Program-made: the position numbers and the translations under genes
In this document: positions 487 to 16,673 of the stretch, in pieces
Numbering within the stretch: the first letter of the stretch is position 1
Layout of the letters: each line of letters starts with the position of its first letter
IMG/VR virus record: IMGVR_UViG_3300046820_000635
Length of the DNA stretch: 20,401 bases
Reading direction: 5' to 3' (one strand)
From: a virus
Lineage: Duplodnaviria > Heunggongvirae > Uroviricota > Caudoviricetes
The notes under the pieces: generated by a model
Told to the model about the DNA's origin: nothing
The model's input: only the letters and a program-made list of their open reading frames with translations
Database searches by the model: none

Positions 487-562
487 GCCCTGGTGGTGGA
501 ATGGTATACACACCGGTCTAAGAAGCCGTTCGCTGCGAGTTCGAGTCTCGCCTAGGGCACCA
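487..562 (+). tRNA. Atypical tRNA-Leu(AAG) with A34 and a short variable loop
   Basis: Cloverleaf with loop CT-AAG-AA, Leu-type D loop and 5-nt variable region. Acceptor stem GCCCTGG/CTAGGGC-A-CCA is identical to the tRNA-Leu(TAG) at 683. Confidence 0.8.
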
Positions 563-593
563 AAAATATTTTCACATTGTTAACCAAAATATG

Positions 594-622
594 TTGACAG
601 GTGATAAATTAGAACATATACT
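594..622 (+). promoter_or_regulatory. Sigma70-type promoter
   Basis: TTGACA-17 nt-TATACT, upstream of tRNA-Leu(TAG) and the GOLLD-like RNA. Confidence 0.8.
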
Positions 623-682
623 ATATAGATGCTGTTAACAAACAGCAACAAATGTTCTTTAAAAAGTTAGTGTAAGAATTAT

Positions 683-767
683 GCCCTGGTGGCGAAATTG
701 GTAGACGCACCAGATTTAGGTTCTGGCGCTGAAAGGCGTGTCGGTTCGAGTCCGACCTAGGGCACCA
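683..767 (+). tRNA. tRNA-Leu(TAG)
   Basis: CCAGA-TT-TAG-GT-TCTGG, long variable arm, CCA. Confidence 0.97.
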
Positions 768-770
768 TAG

Positions 771-884
771 TTCTTATAGTTCTGTATACGAAGGCGTAGG
801 CCACGCTGATGTGACGGAGCACAGCTTGATGTTTTTCTTCAGGTCTGCAGGTTCGACTCCTGCAAGTGTACAGAACTATAAGAA
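771..884 (+). ncRNA. tRNA-like RNA with an extended (16-19 bp) acceptor-like stem
   Basis: Perfect inverted repeat TTCTTATAGTTCTGTA (771-786)/TACAGAACTATAAGAA (869-884). It encloses a D-arm-like GCGT-AGGCC-ACGC, an irregular middle arm and a canonical T-arm GCAGG-TTCGACT-CCTGC. Confidence 0.6.
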
Positions 885-890
885 TTGATA

Positions 891-1779
891 TTTAAGGGCA
901 GCTTAATGTCCTGTAGCGTATGGTTCGCCCAGCGTTACGAAGAATAACTCCTGTGAGGGAGCCAACGATGGAATGCCTACATACCATCGCCAGCAATGGT
1001 TCATTTAAGCAAGCCTGCTCACTACCGTGAGGTAGCGTTCACTGACAAAACCGGTGGATGTAACAATGAAGCAAGTGTATGGGGAAGAACGCACATCGAC
1101 TAGCCTGCAAGGGAACTAGGGTGTGTGAAAAGTAACAGGTGGTGCTGACTTCCATACAAAACCAACTTGCGAATTGGTATGAGAAAGGGTAGCGTTATGT
1201 TCCGAGGGGTCGCTCCTAAGGGGTATAGCGCAATGTTAATGGTTAGTGGACGTAGTAATACGGACACCGATCGTGAAACATCACTGATTACTCCGCGAGA
1301 GGAAAGGTACGTGGTGTGTTGTATTGGGTATGCCAAAAGCGTATTCAGCAACTGAGGCAGCACATCATTGTAGGTTGCAAGTAGCTCATTTGGTAGAGCA
1401 TCTGTCTCTTAAACAGACTGTAGTTGGTTCGATTCCAACCTCGTTAACAAAACGCAAAGACTGCCTCGGTCGTATGTGAAAAGCATCTAATGCTTGACAC
1501 GCAAGTGAATCAAGTCTTACAAAACTCGCAAGGTGGCGTAAGTTTGTACTAGAAGTTTCGTAGCTCGCAAGGCTTAATGGTTCGCAAGATCAACGGAGAA
1601 GAAGGTACAGAGTAGCATACGATGACAAGACTACTGCCTGTCTTTAAAAACGGCGATGCTGGTAACAGACTAGAATACATAGCAATATGGTTTTAGTGGA
1701 AGTCGAGAGAAGGTATGCTCGCAAGGCGTACTATAATGCTCGAGGTGTTACTAGGTTAGGATGTATTCTCAGTCCGCCA
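891..1779 (+). ncRNA. GOLLD-like giant structured RNA
   Basis: ~890 nt with no credible ORF, inside a phage tRNA array. Many GNRA-capped hairpins (GCAA, GUGA, GCGA), a long-range helix 891-901/1638-1648, and an embedded tRNA. The 3' end GTATTCTCAGTCC resembles the GOLLD 3' terminus as I recall it (not searched). Confidence 0.65.
1374..1449 (+). tRNA. Degenerate tRNA-Lys(CTT) embedded in the large RNA
   Basis: D arm (TAGCTCATTTGGTAGAGC), anticodon arm TCTGT-CT-CTT-AA-ACAGA and T arm are intact. The acceptor stem is mismatched and there is no CCA. Confidence 0.7.
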
Positions 1780-1859
1780 CTATATTAAAGCACATTGTTT
1801 AAACCGCGGCTGATTTTAAAGTCGGATGAAGGCGAAACTAACAGTGTGTTTCAATATAG
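1780..1859 (+). ncRNA. Small RNA closed by a 20-bp stem
   Basis: CTATATTAAAGCACATTGTT (1780-1799) pairs with AACAGTGTGTTTCAATATAG (1840-1859), one mismatch. The arm sequences resemble those of the 29-130 element. Confidence 0.5.
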
Positions 1860-1860
1860 T

Positions 1861-1935
1861 GGCCAGGTGGCAGAGCGTTTATGCGCTAGATTGCAAATCT
1901 GGATTAGGATGGTTAAACTCCATCCCTGGCCTCCA
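1861..1935 (+). tRNA. tRNA-Cys(GCA)
   Basis: CTAGA-TT-GCA-AA-TCTGG, U73, CCA. Variant T loop TTAAACT with D-loop GT in place of GG. Confidence 0.9.
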
Positions 1936-1941
1936 TATATT

Positions 1942-2017
1942 GCCTGGTTAACTCAGTTGGTAGAGTTCTGTCTTTACACGGCAGCTGTCGGCGGTTCGAG
2001 CCCGTCACCAGGTACCA
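1942..2017 (+). tRNA. tRNA-Val(TAC)
   Basis: CTGTC-TT-TAC-AC-GGCAG, CCA. Confidence 0.96.
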
Positions 2018-2023
2018 AACATT

Positions 2024-2111
2024 GGAGTATTGGCCGACCGGTTAAGGCAGCAGTTTGCTAAACTGTCGTTCAGAAATGGGCGAGTAGGTTCGATTCCTAC
2101 ATACTCCGCCA
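2024..2111 (+). tRNA. tRNA-Ser(GCT)
   Basis: Loop TT-GCT-AA, long variable arm, G73, CCA. Confidence 0.95.
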
Positions 2112-2132
2112 TATTACACACAAGGAAAATAA

Positions 2133-2312
2133 ATGTTAAAACCAACTAAGACGTACAAAATGAGCAAGTCACTCAAGACCAGCTTGGCACTGAGTGGCTA
2201 TCAAGACCCACATCGTAAGGGTCAATGGAAACGTGCCATGATCGATGCGGAGTTGGCCGCAGCAATTCAGCCCAAGCGTGAAAAGTCACGCCGTGACGCA
2301 CCTTCTGCATAA
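2133..2312 (+). CDS. Hypothetical basic protein, 59 aa (MLKPTKTYKMSK...RRDAPSA), not in the ORF track
   Basis: AAGGA Shine-Dalgarno; TAATG coupling to the next gene. Confidence 0.75.
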   Translation: MLKPTKTYKMSKSLKTSLALSGYQDPHRKGQWKRAMIDAELAAAIQPKREKSRRDAPSA

Positions 2313-2899
2313 TGAACAAAGAGCTCTGGCCGTTATTTTCTAAGCCTATTTTTAGGACTCCGATAGATTTATCTAATCTAGATCTAAGCAAGATCAAGTG
2401 GGCAAGAAACTATAACAACTGGATCAGTGAAAATCAGAATGTGTTGGATCAACCCGATTTTCAAAATCTTCGAGAGAGTGTATACGGTGGCTTGTCGGAA
2501 TACTTTTATGGCGTTATGAATGCCAGCAACAATGTAGAAATCTACATTACTGAAAGTTGGTTTAATAAAACAGAAAAAGGTCAAAGCCACCATAGGCATT
2601 GGCACCCGAATAGTCTAGTTTCAGGCATTGTTTATATTGCATCTGAAGGTACTAGTGGCAGTACAAGATTCATAACAAGTCAGTTTGATACCATCGAGTA
2701 TAATATTTCAGAATCAAATATATACAACTCTAGAAGTTGGGGTATAATACCAGAAGTTAATACTATGATGTTATTCCCATCAAATGTAGAACATTTGGTA
2801 GAAGAATACCTAGGAGAGTCTCCTAGGATTACATTGAGTTTTAATACATTTGTCAAAGGCAATATTAATGTTGATCCGTTGACTCGACTAAGTTTATAG
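2312..2899 (+). CDS. 2OG-Fe(II) oxygenase-like protein (TIGR02466-like)
   Basis: ESWFN...HHRHWHPNSLVSGIVY...LFPSNVEHLV...RITLSFN pattern. Confidence 0.8.
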   Translation: MNKELWPLFSKPIFRTPIDLSNLDLSKIKWARNYNNWISENQNVLDQPDFQNLRESVYGGLSEYFYGVMNASNNVEIYITESWFNKTEKGQSHHRHWHPNSLVSGIVYIASEGTSGSTRFITSQFDTIEYNISESNIYNSRSWGIIPEVNTMMLFPSNVEHLVEEYLGESPRITLSFNTFVKGNINVDPLTRLSL

Positions 2900-2907
2900 G
2901 TTTAATC

Positions 2908-3165
2908 ATGGTAGCAAGGAACGATATTACTGGAGATTCAATCCAGACCAAAGGCGTTAACAATGCCTATCGTGATCATTACGATAACATTTTTAGGAAA
3001 GATAAAATGCAAGTTCGAGTAGAAGAAAAGGCAGAAGACATCGGACGTTGCGGTTGCGGCCGCAGTCCTACAGGCAAGTGCATTGGCTGGCACGGTTTGA
3101 GTGAAGAAGCATTCCAGGCACGATTAGCCGAATTTAAAGAGCAAAAAGAAGCGTCCGATAAGTAA
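2908..3165 (+). CDS. Small protein with a CDGSH-like Fe-S/Zn motif
   Basis: CGCGRSPTGKCIGWH resembles C-x-C-x2-S-x3-P-x-C-D-G-S-H. A possible internal in-frame start at 3007 follows AGGAAA. Confidence 0.6.
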   Translation: MVARNDITGDSIQTKGVNNAYRDHYDNIFRKDKMQVRVEEKAEDIGRCGCGRSPTGKCIGWHGLSEEAFQARLAEFKEQKEASDK

Positions 3166-3179
3166 AAGAATAGAGTTTG

Positions 3180-3211
3180 CCATTATCGCATAAATAAATG
3201 CGATAGCGGAG
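3180..3211 (+). promoter_or_regulatory. Hairpin containing a TAAATA late-type box and overlapping the HNH ribosome-binding site
   Basis: CC-A-TTATCGCAT-AAATAA-ATGCGATAG-C-GG. TAAATA is at 3191-3196, GGAG at 3208-3211 and the ATG at 3218. Confidence 0.55.
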
Positions 3212-3217
3212 AGCTTT

Positions 3218-3898: not shown

Positions 3899-3975
3899 TC
3901 CCTGATAGCTCAGTTGGTAGAAGCACTTGACTGTTAATCAAGGTGTCGCTGGTTCGAGCCCAGCTCGGGGAGCCA
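3899..3975 (+). tRNA. tRNA-Asn(GTT)
   Basis: CTTGA-CT-GTT-AA-TCAAG, G73, CCA. Confidence 0.96.
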
Positions 3976-3982
3976 ATAAAGG

Positions 3983-4011
3983 TTGACAACATCCTTAAAA
4001 TGTTGTATACT
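3983..4011 (+). promoter_or_regulatory. Sigma70-type promoter
   Basis: TTGACA-17 nt-TATACT. The inverted repeat ACAACAT/ATGTTGT spans the spacer. Confidence 0.8.
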
Positions 4012-7825: not shown

Positions 7826-8056
7826 ATGTATAAAATAATAGGTAAAGAAGAAACCTTTAAAGTTCTTACACTAGCAGAGGCGATGAATGTTGCTAAATCG
7901 ATGAACGAGTTTGTTACCATCGTAGGTGACGACTTTGAAGTATGTGGCATGTTCGGAGTAGACAGCGTCAAAGACGGAAAGTGTCCAGACGGTGTTGCCT
8001 ACGATTGGAACAAGGCAAGTCGAATCGGAAGAGTGAAGAAAGAACGAGTGGCATAA
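7826..8056 (+). CDS. Hypothetical protein, 76 aa
   Basis: Directly behind the promoter; TAATG coupling to pth2. Confidence 0.75.
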   Translation: MYKIIGKEETFKVLTLAEAMNVAKSMNEFVTIVGDDFEVCGMFGVDSVKDGKCPDGVAYDWNKASRIGRVKKERVA

Positions 8057-8436
8057 TGGAACATAAACAAGTCATTGTAATGCGTAAGGATTTAAACATG
8101 CGAAAGGGCAAGTTAGTTGCTCAGGGAGCTCACGCTTCTCTTGGCGCAATTTTAAGTCTTTGTAAGCAGGACGGAGACAAGTTAATTCTTGAAATGGACG
8201 AACGTACTAGGCCTTGGCTTACCGGACGTTTCAAAAAGATCTGTGTTTATGTAAATACTGAACAAGAGTTATTAGATATTCATCAGGAAGCAAAACTACA
8301 TGGACTAGTAACCAGCCTTATACAAGATGCAGGTCTAACAGAGTTCGGTGGTGTCAAAACCTATACCGCCGTTGCAGTAGGTCCAGATCGAGAAGATCGT
8401 ATTGATGCAGTTTGTAAACATTTACCGTTATATTAA
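8056..8436 (+). CDS. pth2: Peptidyl-tRNA hydrolase, PTH2 family (true start 8056, not 7942)
   Basis: KQVIVMRKDLNMRKGKLVAQGAHAS...KKICV...IQDAGLTE...TAVAVGP. Confidence 0.93.
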   Translation: MEHKQVIVMRKDLNMRKGKLVAQGAHASLGAILSLCKQDGDKLILEMDERTRPWLTGRFKKICVYVNTEQELLDIHQEAKLHGLVTSLIQDAGLTEFGGVKTYTAVAVGPDREDRIDAVCKHLPLY

Positions 8437-8446
8437 GGAGAACCAT

Positions 8447-9133
8447 ATGAAACGTGTAATCGAAATTCGTGCCGCAGAAGGTGGCGAAGACAGTAAGCTA
8501 TTTGTAAGTGATCTCGCGACCGCATACAGCAAACTAGGAATGAAACTGGGCTGAACTACCCGCCTGATAGATGTGCGTCAAGGTGAATGCAGTTTAGAAG
8601 TTCAGGGCGCAGATTTATCCGGCTTAGATAACGAGCCAGGTGGACATAGGATACAGCGAGTTCCACCGACCGAAAGGAAGGGGCGTGTCCATACAAGCAC
8701 TGTGACTGTTGCCGTCATAGACCGCATGGAGGAAAATGAATCCTCAGCTATACCAGAGAAAGATTTAAAAGTCGAATGGTATAGCGGTACTGGTGCTGGA
8801 GGTCAACATAGGAACAAACACCAAAACTCATGCCGGATAACCCATATCCCTAGCGGTGTTGTAGTTACAGCACAATGCCGTAGTCGGCAAAATAGTTTTG
8901 ACGAAGCTATGTCAACGTTGCAAGAACGTATTGACAACGAAACTAAAAGACAATATAATAATCACATAGCAAGCGATCGAAAGCAGCAAGTAGGATCAGG
9001 GATGCGAGGAGACAAGATTCGTACCTATAGATTCCAAGACGATCGTGTTCAAGATCACTTGACAGGAAAAACAGCAAAATGTTCATCGGTATTAAAAGGT
9101 AACATAGACCTATTATGGCAAAAGACGATATAA
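8447..9133 (+). CDS. prfA: RF1-type class I peptide release factor lacking domain 1, with an in-frame TGA at codon 36 (8552-8554)
   Basis: AAGGAG Shine-Dalgarno, then ATG 8447: MKRVIEIRAAEGGEDSKLFVSDL...KLG*TTRL. The same frame continues to HRIQRVPPTERKGRVHTS (PxT), GAGGQHRNK and IRTYRFQDDRVQDH. Confidence 0.85.
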
Positions 9134-14141: not shown

Positions 14142-14218
14142 TGGAACAAGATCGAGAAAAACTTCGTGCTACAATGAGCAAAGAAGAATTAAAAATTCTT
14201 GGAATTAGGGTAAAATGA
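14141..14218 (+). CDS. Small ORF, 25 aa (MEQDREKLRATMSKEELKILGIRVK)
   Basis: TAATG and ATGA couplings fill the gap exactly. Confidence 0.5.
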   Translation: MEQDREKLRATMSKEELKILGIRVK

Positions 14219-14685
14219 CAACACCAAAATTGTATATGTTGATCGGCGTACCAGGTAGCGGCAAAAGCACCTGGATCGCTAATCAGGATTGGACCAAGGA
14301 TATTCCTATTGTTAGCAGCGACAAGTTTATCGACGAACACGCTGCTAAAGAAGGAAAGACCTATAACGAAGTTTTTGCAGACTACGTTAAGATTGCCACA
14401 CAATTGATGGATAACCAAGTATTGATTTGCAAGGCAAATAACACTGACATCATTTGGGATCAAACTAACACCAGCGTCAAGAGCCGTAAGGCAAAGTTAG
14501 ACAAGCTGGAAGGTTACGAAAAGATTGCTGTGGTATTCCGTACTCCTGAGAAAGAAGAACTGGACAAGCGATTGGCTCAACGTGTAGGAAAGCATATTCC
14601 TGCAAACGTCATGGAGTCAATGATCGCTAACTTGCAAGAGCCAACTGAAGAAGAAGGCTTTAAAGAAATCTGGTACGCATCTTGA
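14215..14685 (+). CDS. P-loop kinase (AAA_33 / polynucleotide-kinase-like)
   Basis: LIGVPGSGKSTW, SSDK, IIWDQTNTS...R, LDKRLAQR. Confidence 0.88.
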   Translation: MTTPKLYMLIGVPGSGKSTWIANQDWTKDIPIVSSDKFIDEHAAKEGKTYNEVFADYVKIATQLMDNQVLICKANNTDIIWDQTNTSVKSRKAKLDKLEGYEKIAVVFRTPEKEELDKRLAQRVGKHIPANVMESMIANLQEPTEEEGFKEIWYAS

Positions 14686-14710
14686 CATAGATACAATTTG
14701 GTGTTATACT
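14682..14710 (+). promoter_or_regulatory. Sigma70-type promoter
   Basis: TTGACA-17 nt-TATACT. Confidence 0.8.
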
Positions 14711-14719
14711 AGGAATATT

Positions 14720-15265
14720 ATGAAAACTTATATAACATCAGATTTACATTTCGGACACAAGAACATCATGAAGTTCTGTCCAGTTACACGAGCACGATTT
14801 CGTGATGACGTTTCCTACATGAATGGTATGATGATTAAGGAATGGAACGATTTGATCGAACCAGATGACTTAGTCTATATCTTAGGAGATGTAGCATTTA
14901 TGTCTGGCAGTGATGCTGGACGTATTATGCACGGCTTAAATGGTACTAAGATTTTAATCGAGGGTAACCATGATCGCAAGACTTTAATGGATGCAACATT
15001 CCGTAGTGCGTTTAAGGAAGTTCACTCTTACTTAAACATTACTTACGATGGTCACAAGATTGCCATGTTCCATTATCCTATTGCAGAATGGGATCAGATG
15101 CACAGAGGTGCATTACATTTCTACGGTCACTTACACGGTGGCGATAGTGGCTTGGAGAAATACCGTTGCCGCGATGTAGGGATGGACGCTACAGGAATGA
15201 TTGCTGTCACATTAGACTGGGCAATCGCTAATGTTAAAAACAATGAGATTAAAGGACATCACTAA
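14720..15265 (+). CDS. Calcineurin-like metallophosphoesterase
   Basis: SDLHFGH, LGD, GNHD, FHYP and GHLH motifs. Confidence 0.92.
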   Translation: MKTYITSDLHFGHKNIMKFCPVTRARFRDDVSYMNGMMIKEWNDLIEPDDLVYILGDVAFMSGSDAGRIMHGLNGTKILIEGNHDRKTLMDATFRSAFKEVHSYLNITYDGHKIAMFHYPIAEWDQMHRGALHFYGHLHGGDSGLEKYRCRDVGMDATGMIAVTLDWAIANVKNNEIKGHH

Positions 15266-15768
15266 TGGAACTAGTTGAAAAAGCCAGAGTATTTGCAACT
15301 GCGGCACATGCCTCGGCCGCTCAACTACGCAAGTACACCAACGAACCGTACATCGTACATCCAAGAGAGGTAGCACGTATTATAGGAACAGTTCCTCATT
15401 CTTACGAAATGTTAGCGGCTGCTTGGTTACACGATGTTGTTGAAGATACCGGTGTTACCTTAGAAGTTATCCGAGACGAGTTTGGCAATGATGTTGCTAC
15501 ATTAGTTGGATGGTTAACTGATGTTAGTCGTCCTGAACAAGGTAATCGCGCAACACGAAAAGCAATCGATCGAGCACATACTGCAATGGCTCCTGCTGAT
15601 GCGCAAACTATTAAGTTAGCTGATTTAATCTCCAACTGTACTAGCATTGTTGAACATGATTCAACATTTGCTAAGACCTACTTGGAAGAGAAGAGATTAT
15701 TGCTTGAGGTTTTAACCAAAGGCGATCGCGAACTTTGGAAACATGCTAATGAGATTGTGAGCAAATAA
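15265..15768 (+). CDS. HD-domain hydrolase (SpoT/Mesh1-like)
   Basis: RKYTNEPYIVHP...AAWLHDVVEDT...VGWLTD...IKLADLISN. Confidence 0.88.
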   Translation: MELVEKARVFATAAHASAAQLRKYTNEPYIVHPREVARIIGTVPHSYEMLAAAWLHDVVEDTGVTLEVIRDEFGNDVATLVGWLTDVSRPEQGNRATRKAIDRAHTAMAPADAQTIKLADLISNCTSIVEHDSTFAKTYLEEKRLLLEVLTKGDRELWKHANEIVSK

Positions 15769-16673
15769 TGTTTAAGGATGAATTGCAAGAGTATGTGCAA
15801 ACTAGTAACCTAGTCAACATGAAAGAGTGTGGCGATGGTATCTATGTGCTAAAGTACAAGAAGAAGGTGTTCTACGATAACTTGTGGAACGAATACATTG
15901 CAGAATGTCGTGGTTCTATTGTGGACAAGGATTTCAACCTAGTGTCGTATCCATTCACAAAGATCTACAACTATGGTATCGAAAAGGAAGCACCAGTGCT
16001 AGCCAACGATACTCCAGTTACAGCCTTCCGTAAGGTCAACGGCTTTATGGTTGCCTGTACTTGGCACAACGGCGATGTACTAGTTTCTACAACTGGTAGC
16101 ACAGACAGCGACTATGTTGCTATGGCCAAGGAAATGATGTTGACTCATATGCCATGGGCAGATTGGCAACTTGGATTTACTAAGACAGACATGGATGGTA
16201 TGACTGTGATGTTTGAGTGCGTTCACCCAAATGATCCACACATCATTCCAGAAGTTCCAGGCATGTATGTTTTAGGCTATCGTGAAAACTCTTGGGGTAG
16301 CAAGGTTGGGCACGACAAGGACACACTATGGCTCTTGGGCAAAGTGTTTAACTGTCATGTTCCAGAAGTCATAGAAACTACTGTGGGCAACCTAGTAGAG
16401 GCTACTAAGAATGTTCGTCACGAAGGTTATGTATTCTACACAGACGATGGTGTGAGTGCTAAGATTAAGAGCCCTTACTACTTGACTTCAAAGTGGGTTG
16501 CTCGCAATCCACGTACAGATAAGTTAGTAGACTTGAACAAGGACATCAAGCATAATCTAGATGAAGAGTATTATTCACTCGTGGACGCGATTCGTGAAAA
16601 CATTGTGGAGTATACAGCTATGGATGAACAGGCTCGTTTGGCTTGGGTGCGCAACTTTCTGGAGTCGGCCTAA
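15768..16673 (+). CDS. RNA ligase, T4 Rnl1-like
   Basis: PFTKIYNYG, RKVNGFM (motif I KxNG), TTGS, MFECV, EGYV and KIKS. Confidence 0.85.
   Translation: MFKDELQEYVQTSNLVNMKECGDGIYVLKYKKKVFYDNLWNEYIAECRGSIVDKDFNLVSYPFTKIYNYGIEKEAPVLANDTPVTAFRKVNGFMVACTWHNGDVLVSTTGSTDSDYVAMAKEMMLTHMPWADWQLGFTKTDMDGMTVMFECVHPNDPHIIPEVPGMYVLGYRENSWGSKVGHDKDTLWLLGKVFNCHVPEVIETTVGNLVEATKNVRHEGYVFYTDDGVSAKIKSPYYLTSKWVARNPRTDKLVDLNKDIKHNLDEEYYSLVDAIRENIVEYTAMDEQARLAWVRNFLESA

Follow-up and report, generated by a model that had tools for sequence, protein, structure and literature searches.

The stretch of DNA analysed here, referred to as the window, comprises the 20,401 nucleotides (nt) of the IMG/VR virus record IMGVR_UViG_3300046820_000635 (Caudoviricetes), and the element under study is a structured RNA of about 890 nt encoded near its beginning, in which a module shaped like a transfer RNA (tRNA) is embedded. 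The setting is that of a phage tRNA array, in which the window's 18 tRNAs share the plus strand and are accompanied by phage-type genes, and the stretch occurs in freshwater metagenomes. The phage is a large uncultivated one from freshwater, and positions 890-1779 of the plus strand encode its GOLLD RNA, an ordinary, full-length member of the family, with the following parts:

890-1310, plus strand: GOLLD 5′ domain outside the Rfam model, kept in seven close relatives from about 890, with many compensatory helices (RNAalifold)
1311-1775, plus strand: GOLLD conserved 3′ domain, matched by RF02032
1375-1447, plus strand: tRNA-shaped module with anticodon CUU, a weak acceptor and no CCA (Rfam tRNA, 54.6 bits; ARAGORN, end 1447/8)
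1759-1779, plus strand: terminal hairpin with a GUAUUCUCAG loop, the probable 3′ end (stem covariation; one RNA-library contig ending at 1779)

GOLLD RNAs are found in tRNA arrays, and a tRNA sometimes lies in a variable linker inside an RNA-only cage (Kretsch et al. 2025, PMC12286853; review PMC12990946), as the original prediction for this stretch had stated. Two of them have been solved, namely env-38 (833 nt, a 14-mer, PDB 9MEE) and the GOLLD of Streptococcus agalactiae (a 12-mer, PDB 9L0R) (PMC12286853, PMC12990946). Linker-borne tRNAs of GOLLD are therefore already in the literature, and the RNA of the window is a further GOLLD and not a new kind of object. It resembles both solved examples in its full match to the 3′ model, its variable 5′ domain, its many GNRA loops, its terminal GUAAUCUCAG-type loop and its phage tRNA array, and differs from them in that its 5′ domain is that of a freshwater jumbo-phage clade and in that its assembly into a cage is a prediction.

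The assignment to GOLLD, made originally on the basis of a 3′ motif, is borne out by the Rfam covariance model, since RF02032 matches positions 1311-1775 (+) with 234.4 bits against a gathering score of 150 (E 1e-65) and the alignment is complete, running over model positions 1-416 of 416. GOLLD and tRNA are the sole families reaching the Rfam threshold in the window, where ROOL gave no match, and ROOL is therefore excluded; between 560 and 1320, no further Rfam match appeared even at E up to 1. The motif in question, GTATTCTCAG at 1764-1773, forms the loop of the model's terminal hairpin and agrees with the Rfam consensus, and the proposed separate 3′ domain corresponds to a subdomain closed by a covarying helix and followed by that hairpin. 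The Rfam-covered 3′ domain is preceded by the roughly 420 bases of the 5′ domain, conserved and covarying within the clade and different in a more distant group, so that the predicted span of about 890 nt (891-1779) also holds.

Relatives were gathered from two sources. A blastn search against isolated phages yielded Sinorhizobium phage Phosso, Erythrobacter phage XM05 and phiCbK-like phages of Caulobacter; GOLLDs of this clade are thus present in cultured phages, among them Phosso, XM05 and the Caulobacter phages CcrMagneto and Karma. Further relatives came from three IMG/VR pattern scans whose matches were passed through an nhmmer profile, and for these the figures given below hold among the matches listed. 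The IMG/VR contigs that carry these GOLLD relatives are 200-424 kb long, and when isolated phages were searched by Megablast with the complete window, the matches were all tRNA-sized, pointing to no cultured close relative. When covariation was checked on homologues, as had been proposed, the RNAalifold consensus of eight full-length copies (881-903 nt each) contained 235 pairs, 126 of which change on both sides. The predicted lack of a credible open reading frame (ORF) was likewise confirmed, only three chance ORFs of 51-87 amino acids overlapping the stretch. At least ten GNRA-capped hairpins had also been claimed, and here the enrichment stands, with nine strict GNRA tetraloop hairpins (stem of at least 3 base pairs), whereas shuffles average 2.0 and the reverse strand has one; the number would rise if closing stems of 2 base pairs were admitted. 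Additionally, a GOLLD deletion variant with an intact 3′ domain was observed in relative L008 (about 2700-3212; also in L022, L028 and L032), which lacks the latter half of its 5′ domain along with the hairpin that opens the Rfam model, what is left of the 5′ domain abutting the tRNA module.

The one structural claim that failed is that of a long-range 11-base-pair helix joining 891-901 to 1638-1648. In eight relatives, 72% of its cells are paired and 0 of its 11 pairs are compensatory, position 1641 varies (T, A, G) while the proposed partner 898 stays G, and both strands are occupied by covarying local helices, for which reason the helix was rejected. The local helices are 895-900/907-912, with three of six pairs compensatory, and 1627-1631/1640-1644, with two of five pairs compensatory, 92% pairing and AT, TA and CG at one pair. 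The second belongs to a region that fits the pseudoknot reported between L22 and J17/22 of env-38 GOLLD:

1627-1652, plus strand: local pseudoknot region, formed by helix 1627-1631/1640-1644 plus GCC/GGC, which takes up the 3′ arm of the proposed long-range helix

The tRNA-shaped module occupies an unpaired variable stretch of the RF02032 model. Pairing is complete in its D, anticodon and T stems, whereas its acceptor forms five of seven pairs (in order U-A, U x U, G.U, C-G, A x C, A-U and G-C), with mismatches at 2-71 and 5-68 and a G.U at 3-70. On the 3′ side, an A is followed by CAAAACGC, and CCA is not encoded, whereas each of the window's 17 free tRNAs has an encoded CCA and a full acceptor stem, the sole exception being the 1-72 pair of the tRNA-Met. 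The description of intact D, anticodon and T arms on a broken acceptor lacking CCA was thus accurate for the window and, as detailed below, for the clade. Judged from these sequence features, it is a reasonable inference that the module is non-chargeable.

Conservation of the cloverleaf was evident in 14 hand-checked homologues, where 92.9% of the cells are paired compared with 62.3% in shuffles, none of 500 shuffles reaching as high a value, and where pairing falls to 31-48% when the partners are slid. In this set, 18 of the 21 pairs change on both sides, and the paired cells amount to 55/56 in the D arm, 68/70 in the anticodon arm, 70/70 in the T arm and 80/98 in the acceptor. A wider survey found the module in about 93 of 97 distinct IMG/VR linkers. 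Across these 97 relatives, pairing amounts to 90-100% in the D, anticodon and T stems, where many compensatory pair types occur, and to 97-98% at acceptor pairs 4-69 to 7-66, each represented by several pair types. By contrast, the outer acceptor pairs 1-72, 2-71 and 3-70 are only 53%, 64% and 39% paired, and the first two are nearly all T-A, which is expected from a fixed TT facing an A-rich run. CCA is encoded in 0 of the 76 modules that could be parsed.

These figures bear on the idea that the module is a neutral passenger, a tRNA gene which became lodged in a tolerant linker and is decaying there with no role of its own. Such a view would be in line with the linkers that lack a tRNA, found in clade members L165, L216, L228 and L260 and in the distant GOLLDs L110 and L062, with the faster divergence of the module relative to the GOLLD core (between L015 and L008, the core is 90% and the module 64% identical), and with the degenerate D or T loops of several lineages, some of which lack the D-loop GG. 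A relic would, however, be expected to lose its stems, and the pairing and compensatory turnover just described indicate the opposite, as does the conservation of six of the seven anticodon-loop positions; a passenger without function is accordingly regarded as very unlikely. The parts that build the L shape, namely the D arm with GG, the T arm with TTCRA, the anticodon stem and the seven-base loop, are kept by selection. As a separate observation, one sub-lineage (for example, L155, L169 and L201) combines a canonical GUU anticodon arm with a D loop devoid of GG and an altered T loop, receives no ARAGORN call, and has the anticodon arm as the best-kept part of its module.

The anticodon loop reads C-U-N-U-U-A-A, with C32 in 81%, U33 in 96%, U35 in 86%, U36 in 91% and A37 and A38 in about 95% of the relatives, and with position 34 free to be G, U or C. 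The resulting anticodons among the 97 relatives are GUU (Asn) in 42, UUU in 25, CUU in 10 and UCU in 7, with others once or twice each. Thus, of the preserved Lys anticodon arm that had been proposed, the shape of arm and loop is retained, including U35-U36-A37-A38, and the Lys identity is not. The anticodon can even differ between closely similar modules, since L003, L014 and L015, with bodies 79-84% identical, carry CUU, UCU and UAU, L003 also having G33. No partner covarying with anticodon position 34 was detected among all 936 alignment columns, which makes an internal pairing partner within GOLLD unlikely. It was also noted that U35-U36-A37-A38 (window 1408-1412) is self-complementary, so that a kissing contact between two modules of a symmetric cage is conceivable in principle; in the clade alignment, no compensating change was seen at 37/38 when 35/36 change.

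Both flanks of the module are anchored in the rest of GOLLD, as indicated by the following elements:

1352-1360, plus strand: 5′ strand of a 9-base-pair helix enclosing the linker and the tRNA module, pairing with 1461-1469
1461-1469, plus strand: 3′ strand of the same linker-enclosing helix, pairing with 1352-1360
975-980, plus strand: hairpin loop GCCUAC, tentatively put forward as the pseudoknot partner of 1370-1375

In the enclosing helix, 97% of the cells are paired and three of the nine pairs are compensatory in eight relatives, and the pairing is also retained in Phosso, Magneto and XM05. As for the loop-to-link contact, GUAGGU at 1370-1375, which includes the first base of the module, is complementary to the 5′-domain loop GCCUAC and invariant in the eight close relatives. 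The L003/L014 group has the loop GGCCAC with the partner GUGGCU, corresponding to two compensatory positions, and Phosso and Magneto (L001 and L002) have CCCA with UGGG at this contact, so that a pseudoknot between 975-980 and 1370-1375 is tentatively suggested by sequence in three lineages. A competing RNAalifold helix, 1012-1019/1369-1376, was set aside in favour of 975-980, being invariant in the close group and having an L003/L014 counterpart that is not complementary to the link. Together, the enclosing helix and the loop-to-link contact explain why the outer acceptor positions do not pair with each other, and they would be expected to hinder RNase P. The position of the linker is similar to that in env-38 (nt 497-538 of 833, compared with about nt 480-570 of 890 here), although env-38 has a 42-nt disordered loop where the linker of the window holds a 73-nt tRNA-shaped module.

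RNA-library data were obtained by mapping the contigs of four freshwater metatranscriptome runs, one per study, on window positions 560-2160. These contigs cover about 884-1779 with 90-99% identity and high depth, and several pass without a break over both borders of the tRNA module, namely X16 (1323-1650), X20 (1333-1502), X17 (1328-1478) and X15 (1301-1411 and 1391-1535). This supports the existence of joined, uncut RNA of GOLLD and module, while some molecules may still be cut. Additionally, one X16 contig stops matching at 1779, where Illumina adapter sequence follows, and this hints weakly at a defined 3′ end. Three further signals in this mapping were discarded. Two dips in depth, one in the bin of the tRNA (1370-1423) and one at 1208-1261, which might have suggested excision, match variable parts of the alignment and are most simply attributed to unmapped relatives; the lack of coverage on the spacers at 776-883 and 1802-1963 was given no weight either; and an X17 contig joining 1377 to 1449, which could resemble splicing, probably comes from a relative with a different module.

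The reading favoured by these findings, to which a probability of roughly two-thirds (about 0.68) is assigned, is that the window encodes a full-length GOLLD whose module is retained as a tRNA-shaped domain and is not released or charged as a decoding tRNA. By analogy with the env-38 and Streptococcus agalactiae structures, this GOLLD would assemble into an RNA-only cage of 12-14 chains with the variable linker facing the cavity. The module would stay in the chain, in 12-14 copies per cage, and may offer its elbow and its Lys/Asn-type (N-U-U) anticodon loop to a putative tRNA-recognising partner. What the present analysis adds to the linker tRNAs already known is an acceptor reduced to a four-pair stub, the absence of CCA and flanks paired into the GOLLD body.

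Several points weigh against this reading. The tRNA score of the module is mid-range (54.6 bits, compared with 46.9-68.1 for the free tRNAs) and ARAGORN calls it too; no other tRNA-Lys lies within the 20-kb window, so that the module may yet have a decoding role; and a host CCA-adding enzyme could provide CCA post-transcriptionally. Additionally, the case for cage formation is one of homology, the binding partner is putative, the loop-to-link pseudoknot depends on three lineages, and the RNA contigs do not reveal RNA ends or the cleaved fraction, RNA libraries being able to hold DNA.

Some of these points are also what would be expected if the cage held a real tRNA-Lys(CUU) in inhibited storage, to be released by RNase P and 3′ trimming, completed with CCA by the host and used in AAG decoding. 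A cloverleaf recognised by both Rfam and ARAGORN would suit such a stored pro-tRNA, as would the lack of a free tRNA-Lys in the window and the presence of the discriminator A73 and of U35, which are identity elements of lysyl-tRNA synthetase. The idea has been voiced in PMC12990946 and drawn in Fig. 4c of Kretsch et al. (PMC12286853). Nevertheless, the clade keeps four acceptor pairs and shows no covariation in pairs 1-3, CCA is encoded in none of the 76 modules as against all 17 neighbouring tRNAs, and related bodies with Lys, Ile and Arg anticodons would mischarge. Moreover, XM05 and L008 already own a separate normal tRNA-Lys(CUU), some relatives are devoid of the D-loop GG or of the whole module, the RNA contigs cross both junctions, and the pseudo-tRNA within the GOLLD of M. 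aubagnense gave no separate transcript (PMC6582537). The module therefore lacks a seven-pair acceptor, an encoded CCA and an anticodon stable among orthologues, as a functional tRNA-Lys would have them, and its storage for later decoding is considered unlikely.

If the module is instead retained as a tRNA-shaped domain, the question of what it might display can be approached through the loop. The tRNAs known to be attacked by PrrC, colicin E5 and colicin D are those for Lys, Asn and Arg, and U-rich Lys/Asn-type loops could soak up host anticodon nucleases of the PrrC, RloC, HEPN or PARIS type, a cut in the non-structural linker leaving the cage intact and a phage ligase possibly resealing it. 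Such a decoy or sponge would account for the retention of C32, U33, U35, U36, A37 and A38 in about 80-95% of the relatives despite the turnover of the stems, with position 34 alone free, and for a dispensable acceptor end; the 9-base-pair enclosing helix would keep the halves together after a nick. Genes for an Rnl1-like RNA ligase, a kinase and a phosphoesterase, a set similar to the T4 tRNA-repair pair, are also present in the window, and the conservation of U35-U36-A37-A38 together with these nearby genes is compatible with the broader form of the decoy idea. On the other hand, a nuclease may not reach a module inside a closed cage, the N-U-U bias could reflect descent from one captured Lys/Asn tRNA, the natural targets have modified bases that are possibly absent from the module, and repair genes are common in large phages with or without GOLLD. 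The narrow proposal of a decoy for PrrC, which targets tRNA-Lys, is weakened by the sequences of the clade, since the anticodon is not fixed as Lys, and a decoy for anticodon-loop nucleases in general is possible, albeit with a low probability. In a related and similarly doubtful form, the module would be a multivalent bait or sponge, an acceptor-less mimic displaying the C-U-N-U-U-A-A loop to a factor that reads anticodon loops; a host anticodon nuclease would then be the most attractive candidate, with the Rnl1-like ligase set resealing the nicked linker.

The repair-type genes form a block of four adjacent genes at 14215-16673, which resembles the T4-type tRNA-repair set used against PrrC:

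14215-14685: AAA_33 kinase
14720-15265: metallophosphoesterase
15265-15768: HD-domain protein
15768-16673: Rnl1-like RNA ligase (phrog_562)

Beside the tRNA array, a PTH2-type peptidyl-tRNA hydrolase (7942-8436) and a short RF-1-domain protein (8573-9133) are encoded. In a relative, Caulobacter phage CcrMagneto (L002), a permuted two-piece transfer-messenger RNA (tmRNA) gene lies at 1600-2040 on the opposite strand, directly upstream of the GOLLD gene.

With respect to expression and maturation, the GOLLD unit is preceded by a promoter and a leader and is bracketed by long-stem spacers:

594-622, plus strand: strong sigma-70-type promoter TTGACA-17-TATACT driving the GOLLD unit (11 of 12 consensus positions)
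631-665, plus strand: leader hairpin (631-646), then the boxA-like box TGTTCTTTAAAAA (653-665) (folding; conservation in relatives)
683-767, plus strand: tRNA-Leu(UAG) between promoter and GOLLD (Rfam tRNA 54.5 bits and ARAGORN; full acceptor stem, encoded CCA)
768-887, plus strand: long-stem spacer from the 3′ end of tRNA-Leu to the 5′ end of GOLLD (22-base-pair stem; minimum free energy -53.1 kcal/mol, z -6.05)
1777-1862, plus strand: second long-stem spacer, from the 3′ end of GOLLD to tRNA-Cys (22-base-pair stem; minimum free energy -34.1 kcal/mol, z -6.59)

The promoter, the hairpin and the box likewise lie upstream of GOLLD in L072, L146, L080 and L054. The box resembles the antitermination boxA of rrn operons (TGCTCTTTAACAA), and the order of promoter, hairpin and boxA-like box (594-665) suggests rrn-style antitermination of a structured-RNA operon. 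In L037, the conserved GOLLD 5′ start at 3991 lies immediately behind the promoter (3959-3987), and the expected transcription start corresponds to window positions 889-892. The stem of the spacer at 768-887 encloses three hairpins, one of them T-arm-like, and the spacer is kept in L146 and L080 with bases of both the inner and the outer stem altered on both strands. A third long-stem spacer was noticed at 29-130, all three having stems of about 20-22 base pairs around small hairpins and two having a T-arm-like hairpin. None of these spacers matched an Rfam family, and each of the three occupies precisely the gap from one RNA gene to the next; they may represent processing punctuation of an RNase III or tRNA-like type. 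The exact fit of the spacers to the gaps towards tRNA-Leu and tRNA-Cys suggests that the GOLLD ends are made by processing, and the mature ends would then be produced at the two spacers that bracket the RNA.

Domains shaped like a tRNA are also known inside other large RNAs, as in tmRNA, in the 3′ tRNA-like structures of plant viruses and in mascRNA at the 3′ end of MALAT1. In those cases, as is proposed here, the tRNA shape is reused as a module, which is recognised there by tRNA-binding factors. Unlike the GOLLD module, which is internal and has no CCA and a four-pair stub, they sit terminally with a usable acceptor and CCA or an RNase P site. Closer parallels are the nested elements of mycobacterial GOLLDs, which include the pseudo-tRNA of M. 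aubagnense mentioned above and, as quoted in PMC12990946, a tRNA-Phe in J13/15 of a Mycolicibacterium GOLLD (Morgado et al. 2020). These place a tRNA-like element in the same GOLLD linker, the window's clade differing from them in its Lys/Asn-type (N-U-U) anticodon. ROOL is comparable as a large, ornate, cage-forming phage RNA located near tRNA genes and having a disordered internal linker, although its sequence and fold are unrelated to those of the window's GOLLD.

GOLLD is among the largest bacterial and phage non-coding RNAs, and its cage structure was solved only in 2025. In this freshwater jumbo-phage clade, the linker "tRNA" is most probably a conserved tRNA-shaped domain and not a tRNA gene, and it provides experimenters with a defined element that can be deleted, mutated or used as bait for the partner of GOLLD. 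If the module indeed acts as a bait or sponge, this would represent the first concrete role for GOLLD, in a conflict over tRNA integrity.

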